From positions 1 through 64,000 of IMG/VR virus record IMGVR_UViG_3300023276_001086: a DNA stretch of 64,000 bases. One strand, given 5' to 3'. The DNA is from a virus. Below are positions 3,001 through 30,705 of the stretch, piece after piece. The translations under genes were made by a program, and so were the position numbers. The first letter of the stretch is position 1. Each line of letters begins with the position of its first letter. Under the pieces are notes generated by a model. That model was given only the letters and a program-made list of their open reading frames with translations, was not told the DNA's origin and ran no database searches.

Positions 3001-5613
3001 AGTACTCGGATCGACCAAGTCCTCCTTGTCCTTGATACCGGCTTTCTTGAGAGCAGCCCCCACGTGCTCGAGGTTATTGTCGTGGGCAAAGTTTTCGATG
3101 ACGAAGGGTTTGCCTTCTTTTCGGGCCACCTTAGATGCTGCGGTCTCCAAGACCTGACCCACGTTCATACGACCGGGCGTGCCGATGGGATTCAGTAGAA
3201 TCTCCATGGGCTTACCCTTCTTGGTGTGCGGCATCTCGTGGTCAGGCAAGATACCAGTCACGATACCCTTGTTCCCGTGACGGCCGACGAGCTTGTCACC
3301 CACCTCCATGGGCTCGAGCGTTTTGACGTGGACCTCTACCTTCTTACCCTGTCGGTTGATCTCGACAACTTCCCCCTCGAAATCCTCCTCCCAGGTGACG
3401 GCCTTGTCCTTCTTTGGCTTGACCAAACTCTTGTGGAGCAAACGAAGCTTCTGTTGTTCCGTAGTAAGCTGCTGATCGGCTAGTGCTGCAACAAGGGTGT
3501 CGCCAGGCTTGACCTTCTGCCCCACCTGGACGATCCCACCGTCATCGAGCTTGTCGAACTGCTCCTTGTTCATCCGATCGGGGTAGTAGGCCTGGTACTT
3601 CTTCTTACCGTCGAGCGTTGCCTCCCTAGTGGAGAGCCCCTTCTTGTGCATGTGCTCACTGGTGAGCTTACCGGCGGCCGTCTCACTGATGACCACACCG
3701 TCTTCAAAGTTGAGACCCTTCCACGGGGTGTACCCAACTCGGAGGTTCTTACCGGGAGCGTAGACGCCGCCCTTGGTGAAGTTCGTATCCGCAATCAGCT
3801 GACCCTTCTTGACCACGTCACCCTTCTTGACGGTTGGCTTACTGTGGATGAACCCTTTCTTGTCGTTGAGCGGGTAGTTGTTGTAGAGAGGGACGTCGGT
3901 CTTTTTCCTGCCCTCTTGAATCGTCATCGAGTCCGCGCCAACCCGAGTCACTTTGCCTGCGACGGGGGTGTGGTGGGATGAGAACCCACCAACACGCTCA
4001 TCGAATGTCTTCTCCCCGAGTGTAGACTGCACCAGTGGGGGCTCACCATCCTTGAGCGGAATGGCTTGCTCCATGTGACGACCAGCCATGGTCGCCCGGT
4101 TCGGAGAATCGGAATTGAGGAATGGCACCATGTTGGTGGCCAAGGAGAACATCTGACTCGACTTCGGCACGACGTACTGGACATCGCTCATCTTGACCGG
4201 GCGCATCTCGTTACCCGGAGTGCTGGCCAGAACCTTACTTCCCTTTTTGGGAACATACTTCCCCGCCACGCGCTGCACCGCGTCAGGCAAGGCCACCGTC
4301 GAGTCATGAACCTTGGCGGTGTCCACCATCTCACGCTTGCCGGTCTTCACGTTGATGAGGGGTATGCGGATCTTCTTCCCCTTCTTTTGCGCCCCCAACG
4401 ACATCTGGAGAGAGATGCCGGTACCGGAACCCTCCGGAGTGTGGAGCGGGTCAAGGACTGCGAAGTGTGATGGGTCGACGAGCTTCGCCTCCTCAGTGAT
4501 GCGGTTAGCGTCTGCCACACCGCCCTCACCCGCAATGGTGGTACGCATTTGACCACTGATCATCTTCAGGGGATTGGTCTGCGTTGGTGTGTTCGCCAAC
4601 GACACCTTGCCGAAGAACTCTTTGATCGGACGGTTGAAGGTATCAGGAGAGACGATCTCCTTGATTGTGTCCCGGCGGTCGAGGTTGTTGCCGATACGCC
4701 GTTGGATGGTCTGCTGGTGACCCGTAATGCGCTCGCTGACGAAGTCTTCTACGCCGTGGAACTCCTTGAACATGAGCGAGTCCCGGACGTCCTGCTTCTC
4801 AGTACCCCGAGCTACACCGAGCAACCTACTCGAGCTCCGAAGAAGGGCGTCCTGACTGATGTGATCGATAGGCTTACCGAGCGTCCGCTCAGTAACATCC
4901 GGACTGAGCTTGGAGTCTTTGAAGTTCTGCTGAATGAGAGCGGCGGCCTGCTCATAGTCTTCGACCTCAGCCCGCGGGTCCAGGCGCTTGGCAAAGTCGA
5001 TGGCGACCTTCTCGTGCTTGACAGGACGACCGCGACTGTCTGTTTTGTTGGCCTCGAGGATGTCCTTGCCCCAGGTCCGCTCGAGTGTGTCGTCGCTGAT
5101 GCCCATCGCCTTCATGATTGGGTACATCGGAGGCTTGGATCCGCCGTGGGCGGCTTTGAACTTCCGCGTTTTGGGGTCAAACCCCACGTGCAACGGGCGC
5201 CCTTTGATGTTGAAGAACGAGTCAAGCTCCCCGTTCGCCTTGACCTTGGTGTAAACACCGGGCTTGAGGCGCCACTGGTTGTCCACCTGGAACTCTGATC
5301 CATCGACGATGTAGGAGTAGCGGTTGGTCACCTTAGGAAGGGTGGCCACCTTCTGCCGCTTCTTCTCGATGACCTTCCCAGTCTTCGTATCCTTCAAGAC
5401 CATCGTGGCGTGGATAGGCACACCCCAGGTACGCCCACCCAGCTTGGCCTTCTTCTGTGACGTGTAATCGGCCGAACTCTGCTTATCGGCAATCTCCACA
5501 TCCTCGATCTCGAGGGTGTGCTTATCGCCGACTTGGGGGAAGCTATCCTTGATCGACTCTTGTACGTTTTCTTTGAGCGCTGAGAAGCTTTCCTTGGGGT
5601 CCAGTCTCGACAC
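1..5613 (-). CDS. rpoBC: Phage-encoded single-chain (fused beta-beta') multisubunit-type RNA polymerase, 3'-partial (>1870 aa)
   Basis: Manual translation from GTG at 5613 (GGAGG RBS upstream). Beta motifs YIVDGSEFQVDNQWRLKPGVY, QTNPL...GEGG, HTPEG, GDKLVGRHGNKG and LLNPIGTPGRMNVGQ run in the same frame into beta' motifs RTLKPEKGGLF, KRDPVLH, NADFDGD (1465-1485), bridge helix GRKGIVQKVQSVSEPGYLT and trigger loop GERGTQLAMKAFHSGG. No stop seen; absence from the ORF track fits an ORF running off the edge. Confidence 0.95.
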   Translation of the reverse strand, partial: MSRLDPKESFSALKENVQESIKDSFPQVGDKHTLEIEDVEIADKQSSADYTSQKKAKLGGRTWGVPIHATMVLKDTKTGKVIEKKRQKVATLPKVTNRYSYIVDGSEFQVDNQWRLKPGVYTKVKANGELDSFFNIKGRPLHVGFDPKTRKFKAAHGGSKPPMYPIMKAMGISDDTLERTWGKDILEANKTDSRGRPVKHEKVAIDFAKRLDPRAEVEDYEQAAALIQQNFKDSKLSPDVTERTLGKPIDHISQDALLRSSSRLLGVARGTEKQDVRDSLMFKEFHGVEDFVSERITGHQQTIQRRIGNNLDRRDTIKEIVSPDTFNRPIKEFFGKVSLANTPTQTNPLKMISGQMRTTIAGEGGVADANRITEEAKLVDPSHFAVLDPLHTPEGSGTGISLQMSLGAQKKGKKIRIPLINVKTGKREMVDTAKVHDSTVALPDAVQRVAGKYVPKKGSKVLASTPGNEMRPVKMSDVQYVVPKSSQMFSLATNMVPFLNSDSPNRATMAGRHMEQAIPLKDGEPPLVQSTLGEKTFDERVGGFSSHHTPVAGKVTRVGADSMTIQEGRKKTDVPLYNNYPLNDKKGFIHSKPTVKKGDVVKKGQLIADTNFTKGGVYAPGKNLRVGYTPWKGLNFEDGVVISETAAGKLTSEHMHKKGLSTREATLDGKKKYQAYYPDRMNKEQFDKLDDGGIVQVGQKVKPGDTLVAALADQQLTTEQQKLRLLHKSLVKPKKDKAVTWEEDFEGEVVEINRQGKKVEVHVKTLEPMEVGDKLVGRHGNKGIVTGILPDHEMPHTKKGKPMEILLNPIGTPGRMNVGQVLETAASKVARKEGKPFVIENFAHDNNLEHVGAALKKAGIKDKEDLVDPSTGKIIPNIQTGHQYILKMEHQVGKKMASRDRDAYDHNLVPRGGGKHGAQALGSLGVYAMLAHGAKANLREMQVTKSDKAQGGEKDELWGALQAGEVLPPPKTTFAYQKFNGYLNAMGVDVKKDGNSLNLVPLLDSQVKDMSEGELKDAGRILKMRTLKPEKGGLFDEKITGGMDGKKWSHIKLSEPMPNPLFEKAVMNLSGIRGPQFGRLIDGEDGVDKDGQIVTGSGVKGVTYGPKAVGVMLDKIDVGKDLAKEEKRIKGLKGQAQSESRRKIKYLRNLKKLKMSPRDAYMTQNVPVLPPSMRPISVMEDGSLQTDDLNELYKGLGIVNKKMGEFPKGTPDSMKAPIAASTYDHLKALTGIGGTLNKKHPGILDTIAGKNGPKDGFAQSVLIKRKQDMTARSTIVPDPGMSLDEAAIPRKAAKEMYKPFIVKELRGIAGATPLQAKQMIEEDDPLARKALDRVVAERPLILKRDPVLHKYGIQAFKPKLTEGKAIKIHPLVCSGYNADFDGDTMSAFVPISQDAIKEAEGMYPSKNLFSPASHGVMYTPSHEQQVGLFMAAQTGKATSKNFKDQAALEKAFNASDVKLTDVVKVGGVKTTLGRARVDKTLPKSLQGGPILKDLKFQLTKKEQGKLFQQVARADPKAYPDMANAMKELGNETASTEGFSFGLEDFKTHKDVRDPILRAAASKVAKLDANKPADAQKIVDVYGDAMDKMEVGVKNKAKKLNTNLDVLQVAAGVKGNGYRQLTAAPVLFVDGKGDVIPNPVGKSYSEGLDTTSYWSSTSGGRKGIVQKVQSVSEPGYLTKMMTNSVIDTVVDRNDCGTERGINLSVDEPDVVGRFTTADVNLGRGKKIPSGTMMTPDMLTKIKNSKTTAKVVVRSPMRCSHPKGVCAKCMGLDETGQLPDKGTNVGVLAAQALGERGTQLAMKAFHSGGVYEGKGEKSLTSGGLNRATELLYLKKKVKGSATLATSSGKIKRVKKDPAGGFRVKIGDTEDYIP

Positions 5614-5695: not shown

Positions 5696-5705
5696 TGGGT
5701 ATAAG
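5696..5705 (+). promoter_or_regulatory. GGTATAAG promoter-like motif, copy 1
   Basis: TGGGTATAAG in an intergenic position; same core at 12572 and 29187, each heading a plus-strand unit. Confidence 0.55.
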
Positions 5706-5749
5706 ACCCTTGAAGGTCGGACAATTTAGCCCCCGGCCACGGAGACCCG

Positions 5750-5881
5750 ATGGAGCCCAAGTTTAGAAATGTGGACCCAAGCAAGTGCACAATCCGAGCG
5801 GGAGGCGGCGACGACGACGACGATCCCTGTGATGACCTAGATACGGGGATTGACGAGGATCTTTACCGGAGTCCTCGCTGA
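5750..5881 (+). CDS. Small acidic peptide (43 aa), hypothetical
   Basis: GGAG RBS then ATG; MEPKFRNVDPSKCTIRAGGGDDDDDPCDDLDTGIDEDLYRSPR; downstream of the GGTATAAG motif; below the ORF-track cutoff. Confidence 0.4.
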   Translation: MEPKFRNVDPSKCTIRAGGGDDDDDPCDDLDTGIDEDLYRSPR

Positions 5882-6011
5882 AGATTCTCCTGCTGGCGGC
5901 ACTGATCAGCTTTGCTGTGAACGTGACTCGCCAGCCAGGAGACTGGCTGTTTGAGGGTGAGGAACCTCGACGGCCACAAAGACCGGCGTGGTACTGATCA
6001 CGCCGGTCGAC

Positions 6012-6065
6012 GGGTGAGGCGACTTGGGATTCTCCCAGGTCGTCTCGCCCACTCTTTCTTAGCTG
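6012..6065 (+). terminator. Long hairpin plus T-rich tail, putative intrinsic terminator
   Basis: 18-bp stem gggtgaggcgacttggga/tcccaggtcgtctcgccc with G-U pairs that form only on the plus strand, followed by actctttcttagct. Confidence 0.65.
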
Positions 6066-12569: not shown

Positions 12570-12579
12570 TGGGTATAAG
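12570..12579 (+). promoter_or_regulatory. GGTATAAG promoter-like motif, copy 2 (replication operon)
   Basis: TGGGTATAAG about 48 nt upstream of the first plus-strand gene. Confidence 0.55.
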
Positions 12580-16015: not shown

Positions 16016-16357
16016 ATGGAGAACGAAGTACAGATCCGCCGGGTACGGATTACTCGACGGAAAGGAGAACCAGAAGTGGCAGAGCGGAAGACGGCCTACA
16101 AGAAGACTGACGTGTTGGTTGGCGACGCACTAGCCCGTGTCGAGCGTACCCGCTACGCCAAACACGGCATCGGCTACGGAGACTTCGCAATCAGCGGGTC
16201 CTGCACCGTCAGCCTTCACTGCAACCAAGATGACGTAACCATTGTCGGGGCCTGTCGGAAGGCTGGACAAATCGCTAACGCAGTGATGAAACAGGATGAC
16301 GAGGAAATGGCTAAGGTCGTCGAACTGGTAGCCAGGGAGCTAGCGGAGAATGCGTGA
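16016..16357 (+). CDS. Hypothetical protein
   Basis: 113 aa; in operon. Confidence 0.7.
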   Translation: MENEVQIRRVRITRRKGEPEVAERKTAYKKTDVLVGDALARVERTRYAKHGIGYGDFAISGSCTVSLHCNQDDVTIVGACRKAGQIANAVMKQDDEEMAKVVELVARELAENA

Positions 16358-16691: not shown

Positions 16692-17751
16692 GGAGCTGCT
16701 TGAGCAAATCCAGTCTGATGAGGATCTGCGTATTACGCCCAAGCGACTCGACCTGAGAAGCCGCGGTATCACGAAGGATGACGATCCCGGCTACGAGTGC
16801 TCCCACATGGGGAGCTGGCGCTGGTGGAAGAACGGATCCATCTACATCCCAGGCATAGGGAACCTACTCCCGACACGACACGCCAAGCGCCAGATCGGGA
16901 GCCAATTCGGCATCAAGTACGATCAGTTCCTCGGACCGATGGACAATGACCCAGAGCTCATCCAGCGGGCACTTCAACCCCACGTCAATGCCAGACGCGA
17001 CGATCCCAAGCTCATTACCAAAGTCGTAGCCCGCACGCTCCCCAAAGGTGAGGAGGTGCTAGGTGTCGATGGCATCCTTCGTGGAGTTGTTGGCCCGCGC
17101 TATGCGGAGATCAGAGACGTTCAAGTATTCGATACGTTGCGCAAGGTCGCCGGTTCCGCGCTCGATGAGATGCAGACATCGCTCACCAAACGTACCGATG
17201 AGGCAACCTTTGTCAGCATCGTCTACCCGGAGGCCAAAGATCTCGCCGCGGTTGGTGATGAGTGTCTCGGCGGCTTCAAGGTCTGGAACAGCGAAGTAGG
17301 CGGACGCTCCCTCGGCGCATCCGAGTTCGTCCAGCGGATGGTCTGCGCCAACGGGCTGGTCATCAACGTCCCAGGTGACCAACTGCTCTACCGCCGACAC
17401 AGCGGTATCACGCAGATCGAACTCGAGCAGCTCCTTCGTGACATGTGGGAGAGGCTCCCAGGCCGGTTCGAGCGTATCGCTGTCTCAGCGCACACACTCG
17501 GCACCATCCCCATCCATGACGCTGACGCAGAGATTGATCGCTTCGTCGGCTCACAAGGGCAACCGAAGTACATCCGTGACGCGGTCAAAGAAGCGTTCAA
17601 ACTGGAGCCAATCAACACCGCCTACGGCGTACTCCAGGCTATCACCAGGATGGCGACAGCCGCGCACATCGACCCAAGCCGCCAACTCGACCTTGAGAAT
17701 CTGGGCGGTAAGTACATGCTCCAAATGGCCCCCCCTACAACAATCGCTTGA
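16594..17751 (+). CDS. DUF932/DUF945-like protein
   Basis: GFKVWNSEVGGRSL...RMVCANGL motif; start placed at ATG after GAGGAGG (16672 is an alternative). Confidence 0.7.
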   Translation: MTEITLPIEETQSLRGSSNLDWSPQTMALNSYEELLEQIQSDEDLRITPKRLDLRSRGITKDDDPGYECSHMGSWRWWKNGSIYIPGIGNLLPTRHAKRQIGSQFGIKYDQFLGPMDNDPELIQRALQPHVNARRDDPKLITKVVARTLPKGEEVLGVDGILRGVVGPRYAEIRDVQVFDTLRKVAGSALDEMQTSLTKRTDEATFVSIVYPEAKDLAAVGDECLGGFKVWNSEVGGRSLGASEFVQRMVCANGLVINVPGDQLLYRRHSGITQIELEQLLRDMWERLPGRFERIAVSAHTLGTIPIHDADAEIDRFVGSQGQPKYIRDAVKEAFKLEPINTAYGVLQAITRMATAAHIDPSRQLDLENLGGKYMLQMAPPTTIA

Positions 17752-17825: not shown

Positions 17826-17849
17826 GGGAGTCTTTCCTTGGAGGCATGT

Positions 17850-18161
17850 GTGTCAGACGGAAAGGGTTCCGAAGGTGGTCGTCTCACCCTCGGACAGCGT
17901 GTACATCAACTCGAACACGAGCAATCCAAGACCAGGAAGGAGGTCAAACGAGTACGAGCAGCCACCGGACTCGGCCCAGACGATGAGGACGTAATCGCCT
18001 GGGTAGGGAAGAGGGTTGTCTTGGTACCGGCAGTCGCGGGCATGGGTGAGGAGACCGGCGTCTTGAAGCGCGTACACCGGTTCACCTACCTACTCGAAAC
18101 CGCAGCGGGTCTCGAATCTTTCAACAAGGGGCAAGTCCTGAAGATGCGGCTCTCGGGGTGA
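17850..18161 (+). CDS. Putative Sm/Hfq-like RNA-binding protein
   Basis: C-terminal half GKRVVLV...TGVLKRVHRFTYLLET..LESFNKGQV follows the Sm1/Sm2 pattern; N-terminal coiled coil; GTG after GGAGG. Confidence 0.5.
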   Translation: MSDGKGSEGGRLTLGQRVHQLEHEQSKTRKEVKRVRAATGLGPDDEDVIAWVGKRVVLVPAVAGMGEETGVLKRVHRFTYLLETAAGLESFNKGQVLKMRLSG

Positions 18162-25492: not shown

Positions 25493-26010
25493 CTCGGCTC
25501 TTCGCCAGTGACGACATCTGCCCCGAGTGCCGACAGATCTGTGACCTGATGCGCCTCGTGGTTCTGGTCAGAGATCGAGAGGGCGAGGAGCGCCACCAGA
25601 CCTGGGAGGGGTGCTGGGAGTGCTTCGTCAAGGAGGATCAGTCACTCGAGCTCACTGAGGAGATCCAGACCAAAGACGTCATCAAGCTGCACACAGCGGC
25701 GCAGAGGCGGGGCCAGAACAAGAAGGCCCGAAGAAGGGAGGAGTGCGCCGGTGAGGACATCGGCGGAAGAAGAGTGGCCGGCTCGGGCTCCCAAGAGGCT
25801 AAGGGGGACGCCAGAAATGACTGCTGGATGGTTGAGGACAAACATACGACGGGAAGGGGTCTCACACTCTCCCGGGAAACGATGTCAAAAGCTGTAGGAC
25901 AAGCCAGCAAAACAGGAAGGAACGCAGTGATAAGGGTCGGCCTCGCAGATGGAACTGAACTGGCCATCTGCTTGTGGTCTGACTTCGCGGAGGAGGTGGC
26001 CAATGAGTAA
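25474..26010 (+). CDS. Putative PD-(D/E)xK Holliday junction resolvase with N-terminal zinc finger
   Basis: E..GGRRVAGSGS...KGD......EDK; CPEC..CWEC; start re-called at MSAQ. Confidence 0.65.
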   Translation: MSAQAVARLFASDDICPECRQICDLMRLVVLVRDREGEERHQTWEGCWECFVKEDQSLELTEEIQTKDVIKLHTAAQRRGQNKKARRREECAGEDIGGRRVAGSGSQEAKGDARNDCWMVEDKHTTGRGLTLSRETMSKAVGQASKTGRNAVIRVGLADGTELAICLWSDFAEEVANE

Positions 26011-27863: not shown

Positions 27864-28273
27864 AGAAGAAGTGGGCCTGGGAGGGAGTGGACTGGGATGA
27901 GCGCATTCGACGGGACGAGGTCGTCTTCACAGAGGACCTTGTCGAGAACATGAACTCTTCCGAGCTCATCGAGATACTCAACCTGCGGGGTGTGCGTGCT
28001 CACCGTGGGGTGGACCGAGACGATCTGCTCGATGCGTTCTATCGATCGATGGAGGGGGAGACAGTAGAGATCAAGCACCCCGTCGACTTTCTCAGAAAAC
28101 GGATTCGCTGGTTTCTCGATATCCACTACGAGAGAATCCGGGACCAGCTGACCATGCAGTGCGACCAACGCTGCTTCGACGATCACGATGCGGGGGTGCT
28201 GTTTTGCTACACGGCACCCATGACAAAGCGGAACATAGAAAAGGAAATGAAGAAGCATGGCTACAAAGACTGA
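27848..28273 (+). CDS. Hypothetical protein
   Basis: 141 aa; GGAGG RBS. Confidence 0.7.
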   Translation: MGVGLKKKWAWEGVDWDERIRRDEVVFTEDLVENMNSSELIEILNLRGVRAHRGVDRDDLLDAFYRSMEGETVEIKHPVDFLRKRIRWFLDIHYERIRDQLTMQCDQRCFDDHDAGVLFCYTAPMTKRNIEKEMKKHGYKD

Positions 28274-28994
28274 TGAAGAGATCGCCCGAGAGGCGTTCAA
28301 GCAGGAGCTCCTCCACACCAGCGCCTGGGGACTTCGCCGGCTCGCTGTTGGCCCCAAGGGTGCCAATGTTGGGGTCCCCGAAATGAAGAAGACCAACAAC
28401 AAGGCAGTGGCCGTGGTCGAGCTCATTATGGAAAAGTACGACGAGGGCTGGCGTCCCGGTGGGCCGGCTCTCAACCCGCAGAGCAGACCGGCCAAGAGGG
28501 CGCCCGCCAAGAAAGCCGCCCCGAAGGAAGACCAGGCTACCGACGAGCAGGAGGACTCGCCCGCCGAGGAAGAGACTGGCGGCAATCCGTGGGACGGCCT
28601 CGGCACCGGCGGCGGTGATCTGGATATCGACGGAGACAACGAGCCCGAGCCGGAACCCGAGCCGGAACCTGAGCCAGAACCCGCGAAGCCGAAGCGACAA
28701 CGGCGGGCCGCCAAGAAGGCAGCTCCCACCGGAGAGACCTCAGCTCTCGAGGAGAAGGTCGACAAGATCCTCGACACCCTCATGAAGTTCGCGGCCATCG
28801 CGTCCAAGTTCGAGAAGTCTGCGGAAGAGCTCAACGAAGGACTTCTGGAAATTCGCTACCTGCTGACGATGACCAAGGAAACAACCACGGTGGCGTTGGG
28901 CGGCATCTTCAACCGTCTGTCCATCAATGGCTACTCCGATGTCGTCAAGACCGCCAAGGCCACTGCGAAGAAAGCCTGCGGTAAGAAGGGCTGA
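28257..28994 (+). CDS. Hypothetical protein with acidic (EP)n linker
   Basis: 245 aa; EPEPEPEPEPEPEP and AKKAAP segments. Confidence 0.75.
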   Translation: MATKTDEEIAREAFKQELLHTSAWGLRRLAVGPKGANVGVPEMKKTNNKAVAVVELIMEKYDEGWRPGGPALNPQSRPAKRAPAKKAAPKEDQATDEQEDSPAEEETGGNPWDGLGTGGGDLDIDGDNEPEPEPEPEPEPEPAKPKRQRRAAKKAAPTGETSALEEKVDKILDTLMKFAAIASKFEKSAEELNEGLLEIRYLLTMTKETTTVALGGIFNRLSINGYSDVVKTAKATAKKACGKKG

Positions 28995-29012
28995 ACAGAG
29001 CCTACCCGGCCG

Positions 29013-29180
29013 GTGCGGCCGATCGACTCAATCATATTATCCGAGGATGACCTCGGGAATATGTCTGAGAAGGAGATGCGCAGACTCATCACAACGGTGG
29101 GGTTGTGCGCAGATGGCCTCACGACCCCCGCCACCCTCCGACGCATGATCGAACTGTCAGCCTACCCGAAAAACCCCTGA
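29013..29180 (+). CDS. Small hypothetical protein (55 aa)
   Basis: Manual translation (V)RPIDSIILSEDDLGNMSEKEMRRL...; fills the operon end; weak RBS. Confidence 0.4.
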   Translation: MRPIDSIILSEDDLGNMSEKEMRRLITTVGLCADGLTTPATLRRMIELSAYPKNP

Positions 29181-29184
29181 CCCT

Positions 29185-29194
29185 GTGGTATAAG
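29185..29194 (+). promoter_or_regulatory. GGTATAAG promoter-like motif, copy 3
   Basis: GTGGTATAAG directly upstream of a structured non-coding stretch. Confidence 0.55.
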
Positions 29195-29198
29195 GATA

Positions 29199-29379
29199 TT
29201 GCCTACAGACCCTCTTAGGGTGCGGCAACCTAGAGGAATTTACTCCTTTCGCCTCTAGGTAAACCGGCGCCTGGCCGCCAAAACCATGAGTCCACGCGTG
29301 CCGGTGACCCCTCCGAGACAGCAGCCAGGAAGGCTGTCTCGGGGGGCGATCCACCTACTTGTGGGCACTCTTTTTAGCT
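29199..29379 (+). ncRNA. Candidate structured ncRNA (about 180 nt, five consecutive hairpins)
   Basis: Stems 29199-29228, 29229-29259, 29263-29305, 29309-29346 (14 bp) and 29351-29364, then ctctttttagct; no credible ORF. Confidence 0.6.
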
Positions 29380-29405
29380 AACCAACCCGTGGTACACTGA
29401 GAGAT

Positions 29406-29660
29406 ATGGGGTGGGAATGGCGTCCCGGGAGCCGTAAACAGAAAACGCTAGTCTGCCGAACGTGCAACCAATGTAAGGACCCGAACTACCAAGGCTGCGG
29501 GACGTGCAACTACCACAGTGCAACATATGACTGCTGCCATTCTCGTGTCGAAGACAAAGACGGCTCGCGCATCAGGCTTCACTGCAAATTCTGGGTACTA
29601 GATGGCGGTGACGACGTAGGCAGCGAGGGCGACGAGAGCGGCGGCGACCAAAGTTCCTGA
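29406..29660 (+). CDS. Small Cys-rich protein, probably leaderless
   Basis: 84 aa with multiple CxxC; TGGTACACT ends 7 nt before the ATG; no RBS. Confidence 0.5.
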   Translation: MGWEWRPGSRKQKTLVCRTCNQCKDPNYQGCGTCNYHSATYDCCHSRVEDKDGSRIRLHCKFWVLDGGDDVGSEGDESGGDQSS

Positions 29661-30125
29661 GAGGAACCCGAACCACCACGACCTGTACCACGCTCCAGCA
29701 CGCCTGACGGCCCTCTCAGCAGCCGTAGCGCGTTCTTGGTGGTACTCGGCCTGCTCCTCGAGCAGCGTCTCTCTGATGGTGGCTGTCTCCCGCGCGTGCG
29801 CCACCTCGATACGGAACCTCTCAGCGATGTACAGACGGTCGGCCCACCGGAGTCTGCGGAGAGCTTTCAGCTTCAGCCCGTACTCCACGAGCCGGTCCCG
29901 ATGTACCAGAGCGCCGTCCCACTGGGCCTCGGCGATGTCTCCCTGCTTCATGGGGACGGATCGCGGTGGATTGAGACGCGGGATAAGCGCCCCCTCCTCG
30001 GGCCCGGGACAATCGAAGTTGGGTGCCTGCTTGGAGTCGTAGTTCTGGGGACCGCACACCGTCTGCGTCAACCCCGACGACGGATAAAGGACAATCAGCA
30101 GAACAACCGTTGCCGGCCACCTCAT
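29598..30125 (-). CDS. Membrane/secreted coiled-coil protein, spanin-like candidate
   Basis: N-terminal signal-like segment, coiled coil, C-terminal TM after WYRSWWFG. Confidence 0.55.
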   Translation of the reverse strand: MRWPATVVLLIVLYPSSGLTQTVCGPQNYDSKQAPNFDCPGPEEGALIPRLNPPRSVPMKQGDIAEAQWDGALVHRDRLVEYGLKLKALRRLRWADRLYIAERFRIEVAHARETATIRETLLEEQAEYHQERATAAERAVRRAGAWYRSWWFGFLSGTLVAAALVALAAYVVTAI

Positions 30126-30301
30126 CCGAACACGGCTCTCGGCCCCTGGCCGGGCTTCAGCGTGGGGCGATGCTCCTTCTTGAGAAGAATGAACCCCTCC
30201 TTGCGGCCGCGCTTCCAGAACTCTTTGGCCTTTGTAACCAAGCCCGGTTTGACGGCTGAAATCTTCTGCATCTCGTCTGAGAATGCACTGAAGTTGATCA
30301 T
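30122..30301 (-). CDS. Leader-family protein 6 (59 aa, cationic)
   Basis: MINFSAFSDEMQKISAVKPGLVTKAKEFWKRGRK...; ATGA overlaps on both sides; not in the ORF track. Confidence 0.85.
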   Translation of the reverse strand: MINFSAFSDEMQKISAVKPGLVTKAKEFWKRGRKEGFILLKKEHRPTLKPGQGPRAVFG

Positions 30302-30705
30302 CGAGAGCCCCCTTGTGAAGGACGAACTAGAGAACCGCCAACGCCCCCCGCAACACCAGCACCGGCTGTGGCCAAGGCAGCGCCGCCCAAAACCCGCTTG
30401 GACAGGTCGCCCCTCGCAGCCTCAGGAAGAGCGTCCATGGCCTTGTTCAGTGGTAGCGAATTCCCGGTCCGCGCAGTGACCGCATAGGCCGAGCCGAGTC
30501 CATGCTTCTTGACGGCCCCGCGAAAAAGACGTGACCCACCTACACCAGCACCAGCGCCCAGAGCCCCACCGACCAAAGCACCACTCAGACGGTTACCCTC
30601 TCCCGCTGTCGCTGCTCCGCCAACCGCGCCAAGGCCGGCACCTACCGCAGCACCCAGACCTGCAATCTTCTGCATCTCGTCTGAGAATGCACTGAAGTCG
30701 ATCAT
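30260..30705. repeat. 42-bp direct repeat (30260-30301 and 30664-30705), 41/42 identical
   Basis: aatcttctgcatctcgtctgagaatgcactgaagtYgatcat; encodes the leader peptide. Confidence 0.9.
30298..30705 (-). CDS. Leader-family protein 5 (135 aa, glycine zipper)
   Basis: MIDFSAFSDEMQKIA followed by GLGAAVGAGLGAVGG...; start re-called by ATGA overlap. Confidence 0.85.
   Translation of the reverse strand: MIDFSAFSDEMQKIAGLGAAVGAGLGAVGGAATAGEGNRLSGALVGGALGAGAGVGGSRLFRGAVKKHGLGSAYAVTARTGNSLPLNKAMDALPEAARGDLSKRVLGGAALATAGAGVAGGVGGSLVRPSQGGSR

Follow-up and report, generated by a model that had tools for sequence, protein, structure and literature searches.

Short unpaired C/U-rich motifs target the Shine–Dalgarno (SD) sequences of several messages in RsaE/RoxS, LhrC and RNAIII of the Bacillota, and DapZ and MicL, which are enterobacterial, Hfq-dependent and equipped with specific seeds, represent small RNAs (sRNAs) of the 3′-untranslated-region type that have their own promoter and share the terminator of the mRNA. 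The cuckoo RNAs of Alphaproteobacteria (CcsR1-4/RSs0680a-d, alpha-r14) contain two to four adjacent hairpins, each of which carries CCUCCUCCC in its loop, and occlusion of ribosome-binding sites is their proposed mode of action (PMC4615179). The 6C (B11) sRNA of Actinobacteria is a host gene with two C-rich loops, and its pyrimidine-rich loops pair with purine-rich ribosome-binding sites; loop-to-single-strand pairing is sufficient and the action is reported to be chaperone-independent (PMC6486639). In phages P1 and P7, loop sequences of the c4 antisense RNA pair around a ribosome-binding site and block translation, and a 2025 review of sRNAs derived from phages lists, among others, temperate-phage and prophage examples whose targets are dedicated (PMC12197685). 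Here, we describe a predicted non-coding RNA (ncRNA) gene of ∼175 nt on the plus strand (29201–29376) of a 64 000-nt stretch of viral DNA, hereafter the window, which makes up the initial 64 kb of a 167.8-kb virus record in IMG/VR (IMGVR_UViG_3300023276_001086; 58.5% GC, CheckV completeness 95). Its transcription and both of its ends are inferred from a promoter-like box and a terminator tail. The element is very probably a genuine conserved ncRNA gene, and its sequence suggests a trans-acting sRNA that would occlude ribosome-binding sites of the GAAAGGAG type, a reading to which we assign a probability of roughly 0.5. Two features are the most informative beyond the initial annotation of this DNA, in which five abutting hairpins had been proposed as a novel ncRNA: an invariant CUCCUUUC loop and a pair of covarying kissing loops.

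Related contigs were drawn from IMG/VR, JGI metagenomes, NCBI, ENA and Logan, and were found through the DNA polymerase, a convergent membrane protein (alignment A1) and a conserved 141-amino acid protein (alignment A2). Twelve distinct copies of the RNA lie at the same junction, namely the window copy and 11 in related metagenomic phages: five long forms (the window, L052, L053, L054 and L057), one intermediate form (L056) and six shorter or divergent forms (L002, L003, L004, L005, L008, which is identical to L009, and L016). In an unbiased k-mer count, the only 8-mers common to at least three of the first seven copies are GGTATAAG, CTCCTTTC and TTTTAGCT, the three words being the box, the tail and CUCCUUUC; in a control of 2000 shuffles, no 8-mer is common to four or more copies. 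Of the 12 distinct copies, 10 contain CUCCUUUC; across the five long forms the word does not change, and the stem of the hairpin that presents it covaries. Its unpaired probability is 0.97 in the window and 0.83–0.97 in five of the first seven copies. A stem of 5–13 pairs can be drawn around the motif in 10 of the 11 motif-bearing copies, with a stem sequence that differs by lineage; where enclosed, the motif always sits on the 3′ side of a 12–21-nt loop, and in L002 it occupies the linker just past a hairpin.

The word CUCCUUUC belongs to the 3′ tail of 16S rRNA and is the complement of GAAAGGAG, an SD sequence. Across six records, GAAAGGAG precedes the start of an open reading frame (ORF) at a spacing of 3–11 nt in 20 of its 37 occurrences, and in this phage ∼18% of crude gene calls (44 of 241) have at least six contiguous complementary bases in the SD region; record positions 16060, 77733 and 124006 are examples of start regions with GAAAGGAG. 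Judged by these counts, GAAAGGAG is a ribosome-binding site genuinely used by these phages, and since they use it, CUCCUUUC would be the part of the host 16S tail that pairs with such start sites. A role for CUCCUUUC as a minus-strand ribosome-binding site was considered and rejected because a start codon at a workable distance is missing; in the four records with the full 8-mer, no ORF of at least 40 codons starts 3–13 nt downstream of GAAAGGAG at the RNA locus. The same identity with the 16S tail could also be read as that of a decoy, in which the loop mimics the anti-SD tail and soaks up a factor that recognises or cuts it (such as a host toxin, a defence nuclease, or a binding protein of phage or host), with no message pairing. 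Cleavage of 16S rRNA in its anti-SD region is known for some toxins of the MazF family, and RNA mimics of antitoxins are used by phages. All eight bases of the motif are conserved, which is longer than the 4–6 usual for SD-targeting seeds, the motif of L002 and L003 comes as a single strand behind a hairpin, in the manner of the tail behind helix 45 in 16S rRNA, and the compact covarying body suggests a shape recognised by a protein. The motif nevertheless lies mostly in a closed loop and is not exposed at a free 3′ terminus, no other part of the RNA is like 16S rRNA in order or structure (the rRNA models of Rfam give no match), and no candidate for the factor emerged; we regard the decoy as quite unlikely. 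Among the functions that the initial annotation had offered, a regulator is the best fit, with the decoy that it also named keeping a small share of the probability.

The 196-nt stretch that contains the element folds at −80.8 kcal/mol as compared with −62.6 ± 4.2 kcal/mol for 200 dinucleotide shuffles (z −4.32), none of which is as stable; its minus strand gives a nearly equal −79.7 kcal/mol, with a z of −2.2. The five inverted repeats of the initial annotation are all found in place, with plus-strand folds of −4.5 to −27.5 kcal/mol each. Hairpin 1 (H1, 29199–29227) folds alone at −9.9 kcal/mol; in the relatives, direct reading allows a hairpin to be drawn at the same place, with sequences that are unalignable. 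The bases T29200 and G29201, 6–7 nt past the box, are invariant across the five long forms. Hairpin 2 (H2, 29228–29260) has a stem of 9 bp, the 15-nt loop of which presents CUCCUUUC (29243–29250), and folds alone (29229–29259) at −11.0 kcal/mol. Hairpin 3 (H3) as first drawn (29264–29306, −15.8 kcal/mol alone) needed revision: its outer stem (29263–29270/29298–29305) exists in the window but is phage-specific and not conserved, and what the relatives keep is a small hairpin 3a (29266–29279) with the stem GGCG/CGCC, 95% of cells paired, and the 6-nt loop CCUGGC (29270–29275). A second invariant word, AGUCCAC (29289–29295), is given by invariant columns of the alignment of the long forms. Hairpin 4 (H4, 29309–29346, −27.5 kcal/mol alone) has a 14-bp stem and a 10-nt loop, of which GCCAGG (29324–29329) kisses the loop of 3a. 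The 3′ end (29350–29379), which is listed in the terminator scan, comprises a weak hairpin 5 (H5, 29350–29366, −4.5 kcal/mol), a U-run at 29371–29375, which corresponds to the U-rich tail seen in the initial annotation, and the tail CTTTTTAGCT (29370–29379). The plus-strand preference once attributed to G–U pairs holds for H4 alone (−27.5 versus −23.4 kcal/mol), whereas H1, H3 and H5 fold slightly better on the minus strand; the strand is therefore assigned from the direction in which the promoter box and the terminator tail point, and not from G–U pairs.

The five long forms are well aligned (alignment A3), and RNAalifold returns H2, 3a and H4 from them. Taken over four helices, 91.2% of cells are paired, compared with 39–52% when the partners are slid by one to three columns, and 15 pairs are changed on both sides; 0 of 500 shuffles are as high. 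Four of the 10 pairs of the H2 stem and eight of the 15 pairs of the H4 stem are changed in this manner. In every one of the five long forms, the 3a loop can pair with six bases in the loop of H4, and both change together: CCUGGC/GCCAGG in the window, CCCGGC/GCCGGG in L053 and CCCGUC/GACGGG in L052 and L054. The kissing helix (29270–29275 with 29324–29329) is 96.7% paired, with two of its six pairs changed on both sides. This covariation is strong evidence, and it is not final as it comes from only five sequences; on such comparative grounds, the body is a real fold with a kissing-loop pseudoknot, and the kissing-loop core provides a clean structural hypothesis that is testable by compensatory mutagenesis. 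Two other ideas were considered and discarded. Pairing of the motif with GGAAGG of the H4 loop would need bases that are taken by the covarying kiss with 3a, and L057 lacks GGAAGG; the likeness of GCCCGUC and AGUC words to the 16S decoding region is judged coincidental, as GCCCGUC changes in concert with the loop of H4 and the words stand in another order than in 16S. The kissing-loop core and the word AGUCCAC are left unexplained by SD occlusion, which speaks for the RNA being a structured partner of something else (for example, the phage RNA polymerase or sigma factor, the Sm-like protein, for which it would be a sponge, or the ribosome), with CUCCUUUC as a contact and not a seed. We consider this rather unlikely, as the short forms keep only the promoter, the motif module and the terminator, so that the motif and not the body is constant.

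The promoter-like box TGGTATAAG (29186–29194, plus strand) starts 6 nt past the upstream stop codon (29178–29180), and GGTATAAG is found within it at 29187–29194. The 168-kb record contains seven GGTATAAG sites, all intergenic by context (5698, 12572 and 29187 of the window; 78147 and 158823 of the record on the plus strand, 109392 and 125020 on the minus strand). Four of the seven stand 40–60 nt upstream of an SD sequence and start codon, and the site at 12572 heads the whole replication block. In five related records there are 24 sites, against eight for the reversed control word, and most are upstream of an SD sequence and start codon. The box or a one-base variant precedes the RNA in 12 of 12 copies and is missing at the junction in relatives without the RNA. 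By its distribution, GGTATAAG behaves as a clade-wide, promoter-like box. A −35 element is not visible, and the last position of the hexamer is G, where the −10 elements of sigma-70 promoters have their most conserved T; because of this replacement, the box may serve the phage's own polymerase and sigma factor, both of which are putative. As a separate observation, ATCTAG, mostly as ATCTAGC, lies ∼20–30 nt 3′ of the box in six of nine leaders of a related phage (G001).

The tail CTTT(C/T)TTAGCT occurs five times in the record, always on the plus strand and after hairpins (6054 and 29370 of the window; 78114, 78220 and 89038 of G000:C1), and a similar tail closes the same operon behind a plain hairpin in L013, L024, L055 and L058. 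Termination may thus have a sequence-specific component in this tail, one that could depend on an RNA polymerase of the phage itself. These four relatives have neither the box nor the RNA at the junction, and since their single plain hairpin is the terminator alone, the extra 100–350 nt of the others would constitute an optional gene that is unneeded for termination. In the window, 150 nt with the box, the invariant loop and the pseudoknot precede the terminator-like 3′ end, which is more than an intrinsic terminator. The position of the element between the last stop codon and the terminator of the replication operon, at a convergent junction with a terminator-like site, means that read-through transcripts would include it, and it could thus act in cis as the 3′ end of the operon, stabilising or terminating the message or insulating the two blocks, with the CU-rich word being incidental. 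That reading is rather improbable given that the four relatives manage with a plain hairpin, that the element invariably comes with its own promoter box, and that an invariant unpaired 8-mer and a covarying pseudoknot are unexpected for a stability element.

Known RNA classes and coding genes do not account for the element. ARAGORN detects no tRNA or transfer-messenger RNA in the window, the whole 168-kb record or six related loci, in line with the earlier remark that the fold is not tRNA-like. Against Rfam release 15, with a covariance-model score at or above the gathering threshold of the family counted as a match, the window and 13 related loci give no family; at E up to 10, three matches are obtained in 28900–29700, all far under the gathering scores. 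There is no conserved ORF, and a small peptide read from ATG 29286 was rejected, as this 31-codon frame is not preceded by an SD-like word and the relatives lack its start codon. A stand-alone structured RNA, the main proposal of the initial annotation, is thus supported by the box, the tail, the lack of a conserved ORF and the 11 further copies, with compensatory changes in three helices and a pseudoknot among the long forms.

The preferred reading, SD occlusion in trans, may be set out as follows. The RNA would be transcribed rightwards from the phage box directly after the last gene of the replication block, and would end at the terminator of the replication operon. It would fold into a compact body of hairpins 1, 2, 3a and 4, in which the loops of 3a and 4 kiss and CUCCUUUC is kept unpaired in the loop of H2. 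This loop would pair with GAAAGGAG-type SD sequences of host and/or phage messages, and the pairing would keep 30S subunits off these messages, so that the translated set is altered during infection; the Sm/Hfq-like protein of the phage may assist the pairing. With a promoter, a terminator and no ORF at the sequence level, and with an unpaired seed (probability 0.83–0.97) complementary to an SD sequence that is in use, the RNA has the features of an SD-occluding sRNA, whereas the pairing with messages, the identity of the targets and the role of the Sm-like protein are presumed.

Several points weigh against this reading. A genome-wide duplex scan and a comparative ranking of 57 gene clusters in six records give no conserved or specific target; the best cluster, the UvsX-like recombinase, has ranks 1 and 2 in two records and rank 68 in this phage. 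An abundant RNA would also hit many phage start sites unless selectivity exists, and the elaborate covarying body exceeds the needs of a simple seed sRNA, so that a partner, either a protein or the ribosome, is hinted at. In L005, CUCCUGCC falls within a paired region and the only other words are of the CUCC type, likewise paired, and L008/L009 hold just seven of the eight motif bases (UCCUUUC). Identity of the motif with the 16S tail of the host is deduced from the SD usage of the phages themselves; discrete transcription of the RNA is likewise surmised from sequence. Finally, all copies were found beside two flanking proteins, so that their constant position is partly the design of the search, and copies elsewhere would have been missed. 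Because the complementarity is generic, with no conserved target, and the body is elaborate, our confidence in the mechanism stays near the value given above. A bolder version, in which a mimic of the 16S anti-SD tail reprograms translation in the whole cell together with an Hfq-like ring of the phage, appears improbable. In its titration variant, SD-led messages would be sequestered and a privileged class would escape, the downstream gene at 29406–29660 looking leaderless; in its decoy variant, ribosomes would be shielded from a defence nuclease that cuts the tail.

The candidate partner is a Sm/Hfq-like protein encoded at 17838–18161 (plus strand), the stop codon of which overlaps the start of the DnaB-like gene. 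In five of six related phage records, the DnaB-like gene is immediately preceded by a small ORF with the same motif. A tblastn search of the relatives with the 17838–18161 protein gives no homolog; its counterparts were located by position and motif upstream of the DnaB-like gene (L029:504–779, minus; L037:11544–11801, minus; L041:5569–5886, plus; L051:2642–2959, minus). Pfam has no match for the protein of the window; among five members, the LSM profile is matched by one at an E-value of 0.17, short of an LSM/Hfq assignment by sequence profile, and the C-terminal SH3 domain of RimP by three at 0.006. The AlphaFold2 model has a predicted local distance difference test (pLDDT) score of 85–94 over residues 49–107, which form a helix and five strands, as in the Sm fold. 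The Foldseek matches are mostly Hfq and Sm proteins at E-values of 4e-3 to 2e-2 (e.g. 3rer_C, template modelling score 0.78, root-mean-square deviation 1.5 Å), and others, at modest E-values, are a chain of a 30S assembly complex (7afi_X) and C-terminal domains of BirA. When modelled as four copies, the protein scores 0.60, as compared with 0.00 for the best of three controls, a difference that may reflect likeness to solved Hfq/Sm rings; the runs agree in at least 86% of contacts, the partner pLDDT is at least 77, and residues 90–96 of one copy contact residues 100–105 of the next (strand 4 to strand 5). In the calibration of self-association, made with two copies, the mark is reached by 20 of 30 proteins solved as pairs of one chain and by one of 23 solved as single chains. 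The models concern fold and self-association; as a helper of the RNA, the Sm-like protein is a candidate.

The RNA gene stands where the plus-strand replication block, which encodes a helicase, a DnaB-like helicase, a DNA polymerase, a UvsX-like recombinase and RusA, abuts a long minus-strand block, so that the convergence described in the initial annotation is borne out. According to the flanking sequences and the synteny table, it lies ahead of the operon terminator and behind the stop codon of a small gene (29013–29180) that closes the plus-strand block and the 55-amino acid product of which has no homolog by tblastn in L002–L005; the flanking sequences of the relatives likewise have a small protein immediately ahead of the junction. 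On the other side, the convergent gene (29598–30125, minus strand) encodes a protein of 175 amino acids, the N-terminus of which is signal-like and the C-terminal part of which contains a membrane segment; it has 84 homologs and, through alignment A1, was the handle for finding relatives. The order RusA, 141-amino acid protein, 245-amino acid protein and convergent membrane protein is conserved. Blastn and megablast searches of GenBank phages with 28200–30600 give no relative, the lone match being 49 nt of a Gordonia phage at chance level, and the 245-amino acid upstream protein has no relative in IMG/VR. Exact scans of IMG/VR give no match for the stem pattern of H4 and three matches for the three conserved words combined, which we take as chance because none has the box or the tail.

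This setting bears on two further alternatives. The RNA could be an antisense partner of late or lysis-side convergent transcripts that run through its gene, the duplex timing expression. Convergent, 3′-overlapping pairs are the design of several type I toxin–antitoxin systems, the tail of the RNA is within ∼10 nt of the convergent stop codon in L052, L053, L054 and L057, and the terminator scan is empty for the minus strand from 29380 to 29598. In the window, however, 220 nt and an 84-codon ORF separate the two, the RNA-less relatives retain the convergent gene, and neither the invariant loop word nor the tertiary contact is explained by pure cis-antisense action, which leaves this reading highly doubtful. 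The other alternative is a DNA element, since the border of a replication block and the many inverted repeats would suit the structured replication origin or the packaging signal that the initial annotation had entertained. We find no support for it. With a GC content of 0.56–0.58, the site shows no dip towards AT richness and contains no direct repeats that resemble iterons, the cumulative GC skew has here a maximum, and not a minimum, that merely marks the switch of coding strand, the conservation follows RNA rules (compensatory changes, G–U pairs and a loop–loop contact), and the element is missing from relatives with the same replication genes; an origin or packaging signal is scarcely credible.

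Additional observations concern the surroundings of the RNA gene and similar units elsewhere. Downstream in the window, a variant box GTGGTACACT stands 7 nt upstream of ATG 29406, which opens an 84-codon Cys-rich ORF (29389–29660 with the box, plus strand; CxxC ... CxxC) sharing 63 nt with the convergent gene and not present in the inspected relatives; its mRNA looks as if it would be leaderless or nearly so. The word GTGGTAYAMK has only two occurrences in 168 kb, and these flank the RNA gene. Another unit without an ORF, ∼70 nt long and with the same box and tail, is seen at G000:C1:78147–78230, outside the window, and at ∼25600–25691 of G001:C1 (minus strand); GCGTAAAGC is common to these box-to-tail units of the two phages, which makes them candidates for a second small RNA. 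This pair of box and tail also delimits 5698–6064 of the window (plus strand), where a 43-codon acidic ORF with its own SD sequence is followed by three hairpins. In L002, a further ∼240 nt of hairpins lies 3′ of the RNA (17515–17750, plus strand), including a same-strand GAAAGGAG and a perfect hairpin that buries UCCUUUCUGU, and the word before this GAAAGGAG also precedes the SD sequence of another gene in that phage (position 2944 of G004). The distant relatives L059 (∼3320–4320, minus strand) and L060 (∼4590–4950, minus strand) have a different ORF-less sequence at the same junction, with one stretch containing the tRNA T-arm-like words GGTTCGAGTCC and GAGTTCGACTC and, in L059, an additional series of short repeats that resemble GCAAGACGG; neither ARAGORN nor Rfam gives a match there. 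It is possible that small RNA genes have a hotspot at this junction.

In comparison with the described systems, the cuckoo RNAs are alike in that an anti-SD-like word in a loop is the sole conserved sequence, the stems vary by compensatory mutation and the number of hairpins differs between members. They are chromosomal, whereas the RNA described here is a phage gene with one CUCCUUUC loop, a kissing-loop core and a second invariant word; with a single such loop in place of two to four CCUCCUCCC loops, and different words in its other loops, it shares with them a constant loop on compensatory stems, a likeness in design and not in membership. The Rfam models for cuckoo RNAs, 6C and UCCC- or CU-rich-loop sRNAs give no match. 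Relative to 6C, the motif differs in the U-richness of its 3′ side, and a Sm-like protein is encoded by the phage; RsaE/RoxS, LhrC and RNAIII are host-encoded and have other motifs and folds. DapZ and MicL are similar in layout only, with a promoter at the end of the upstream ORF, the stop codon of which lies inside the box in L052 and L054, and a shared operon terminator. The 16S 3′ tail has the same CUCCUUUC word, which is held here in a closed loop or an internal linker, the remainder being unrelated to rRNA. The c4 RNA has one dedicated target (ant) in an immunity circuit of temperate phages, as opposed to the generic complementarity to the SD consensus found here. A clade of large, uncultured, lytic-looking phages keeps an RNA that copies the sequence with which the ribosome docks mRNA, in addition to a Sm/Hfq-like protein, and this RNA family offers a well-defined, covariation-supported example for testing the action of anti-SD loops. 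If SD occlusion is true, it would represent a virus-made general tool for steering translation, and the phage RNA would achieve by base pairing what RegB of T4, which cuts GGAG in start sites, does by cutting.

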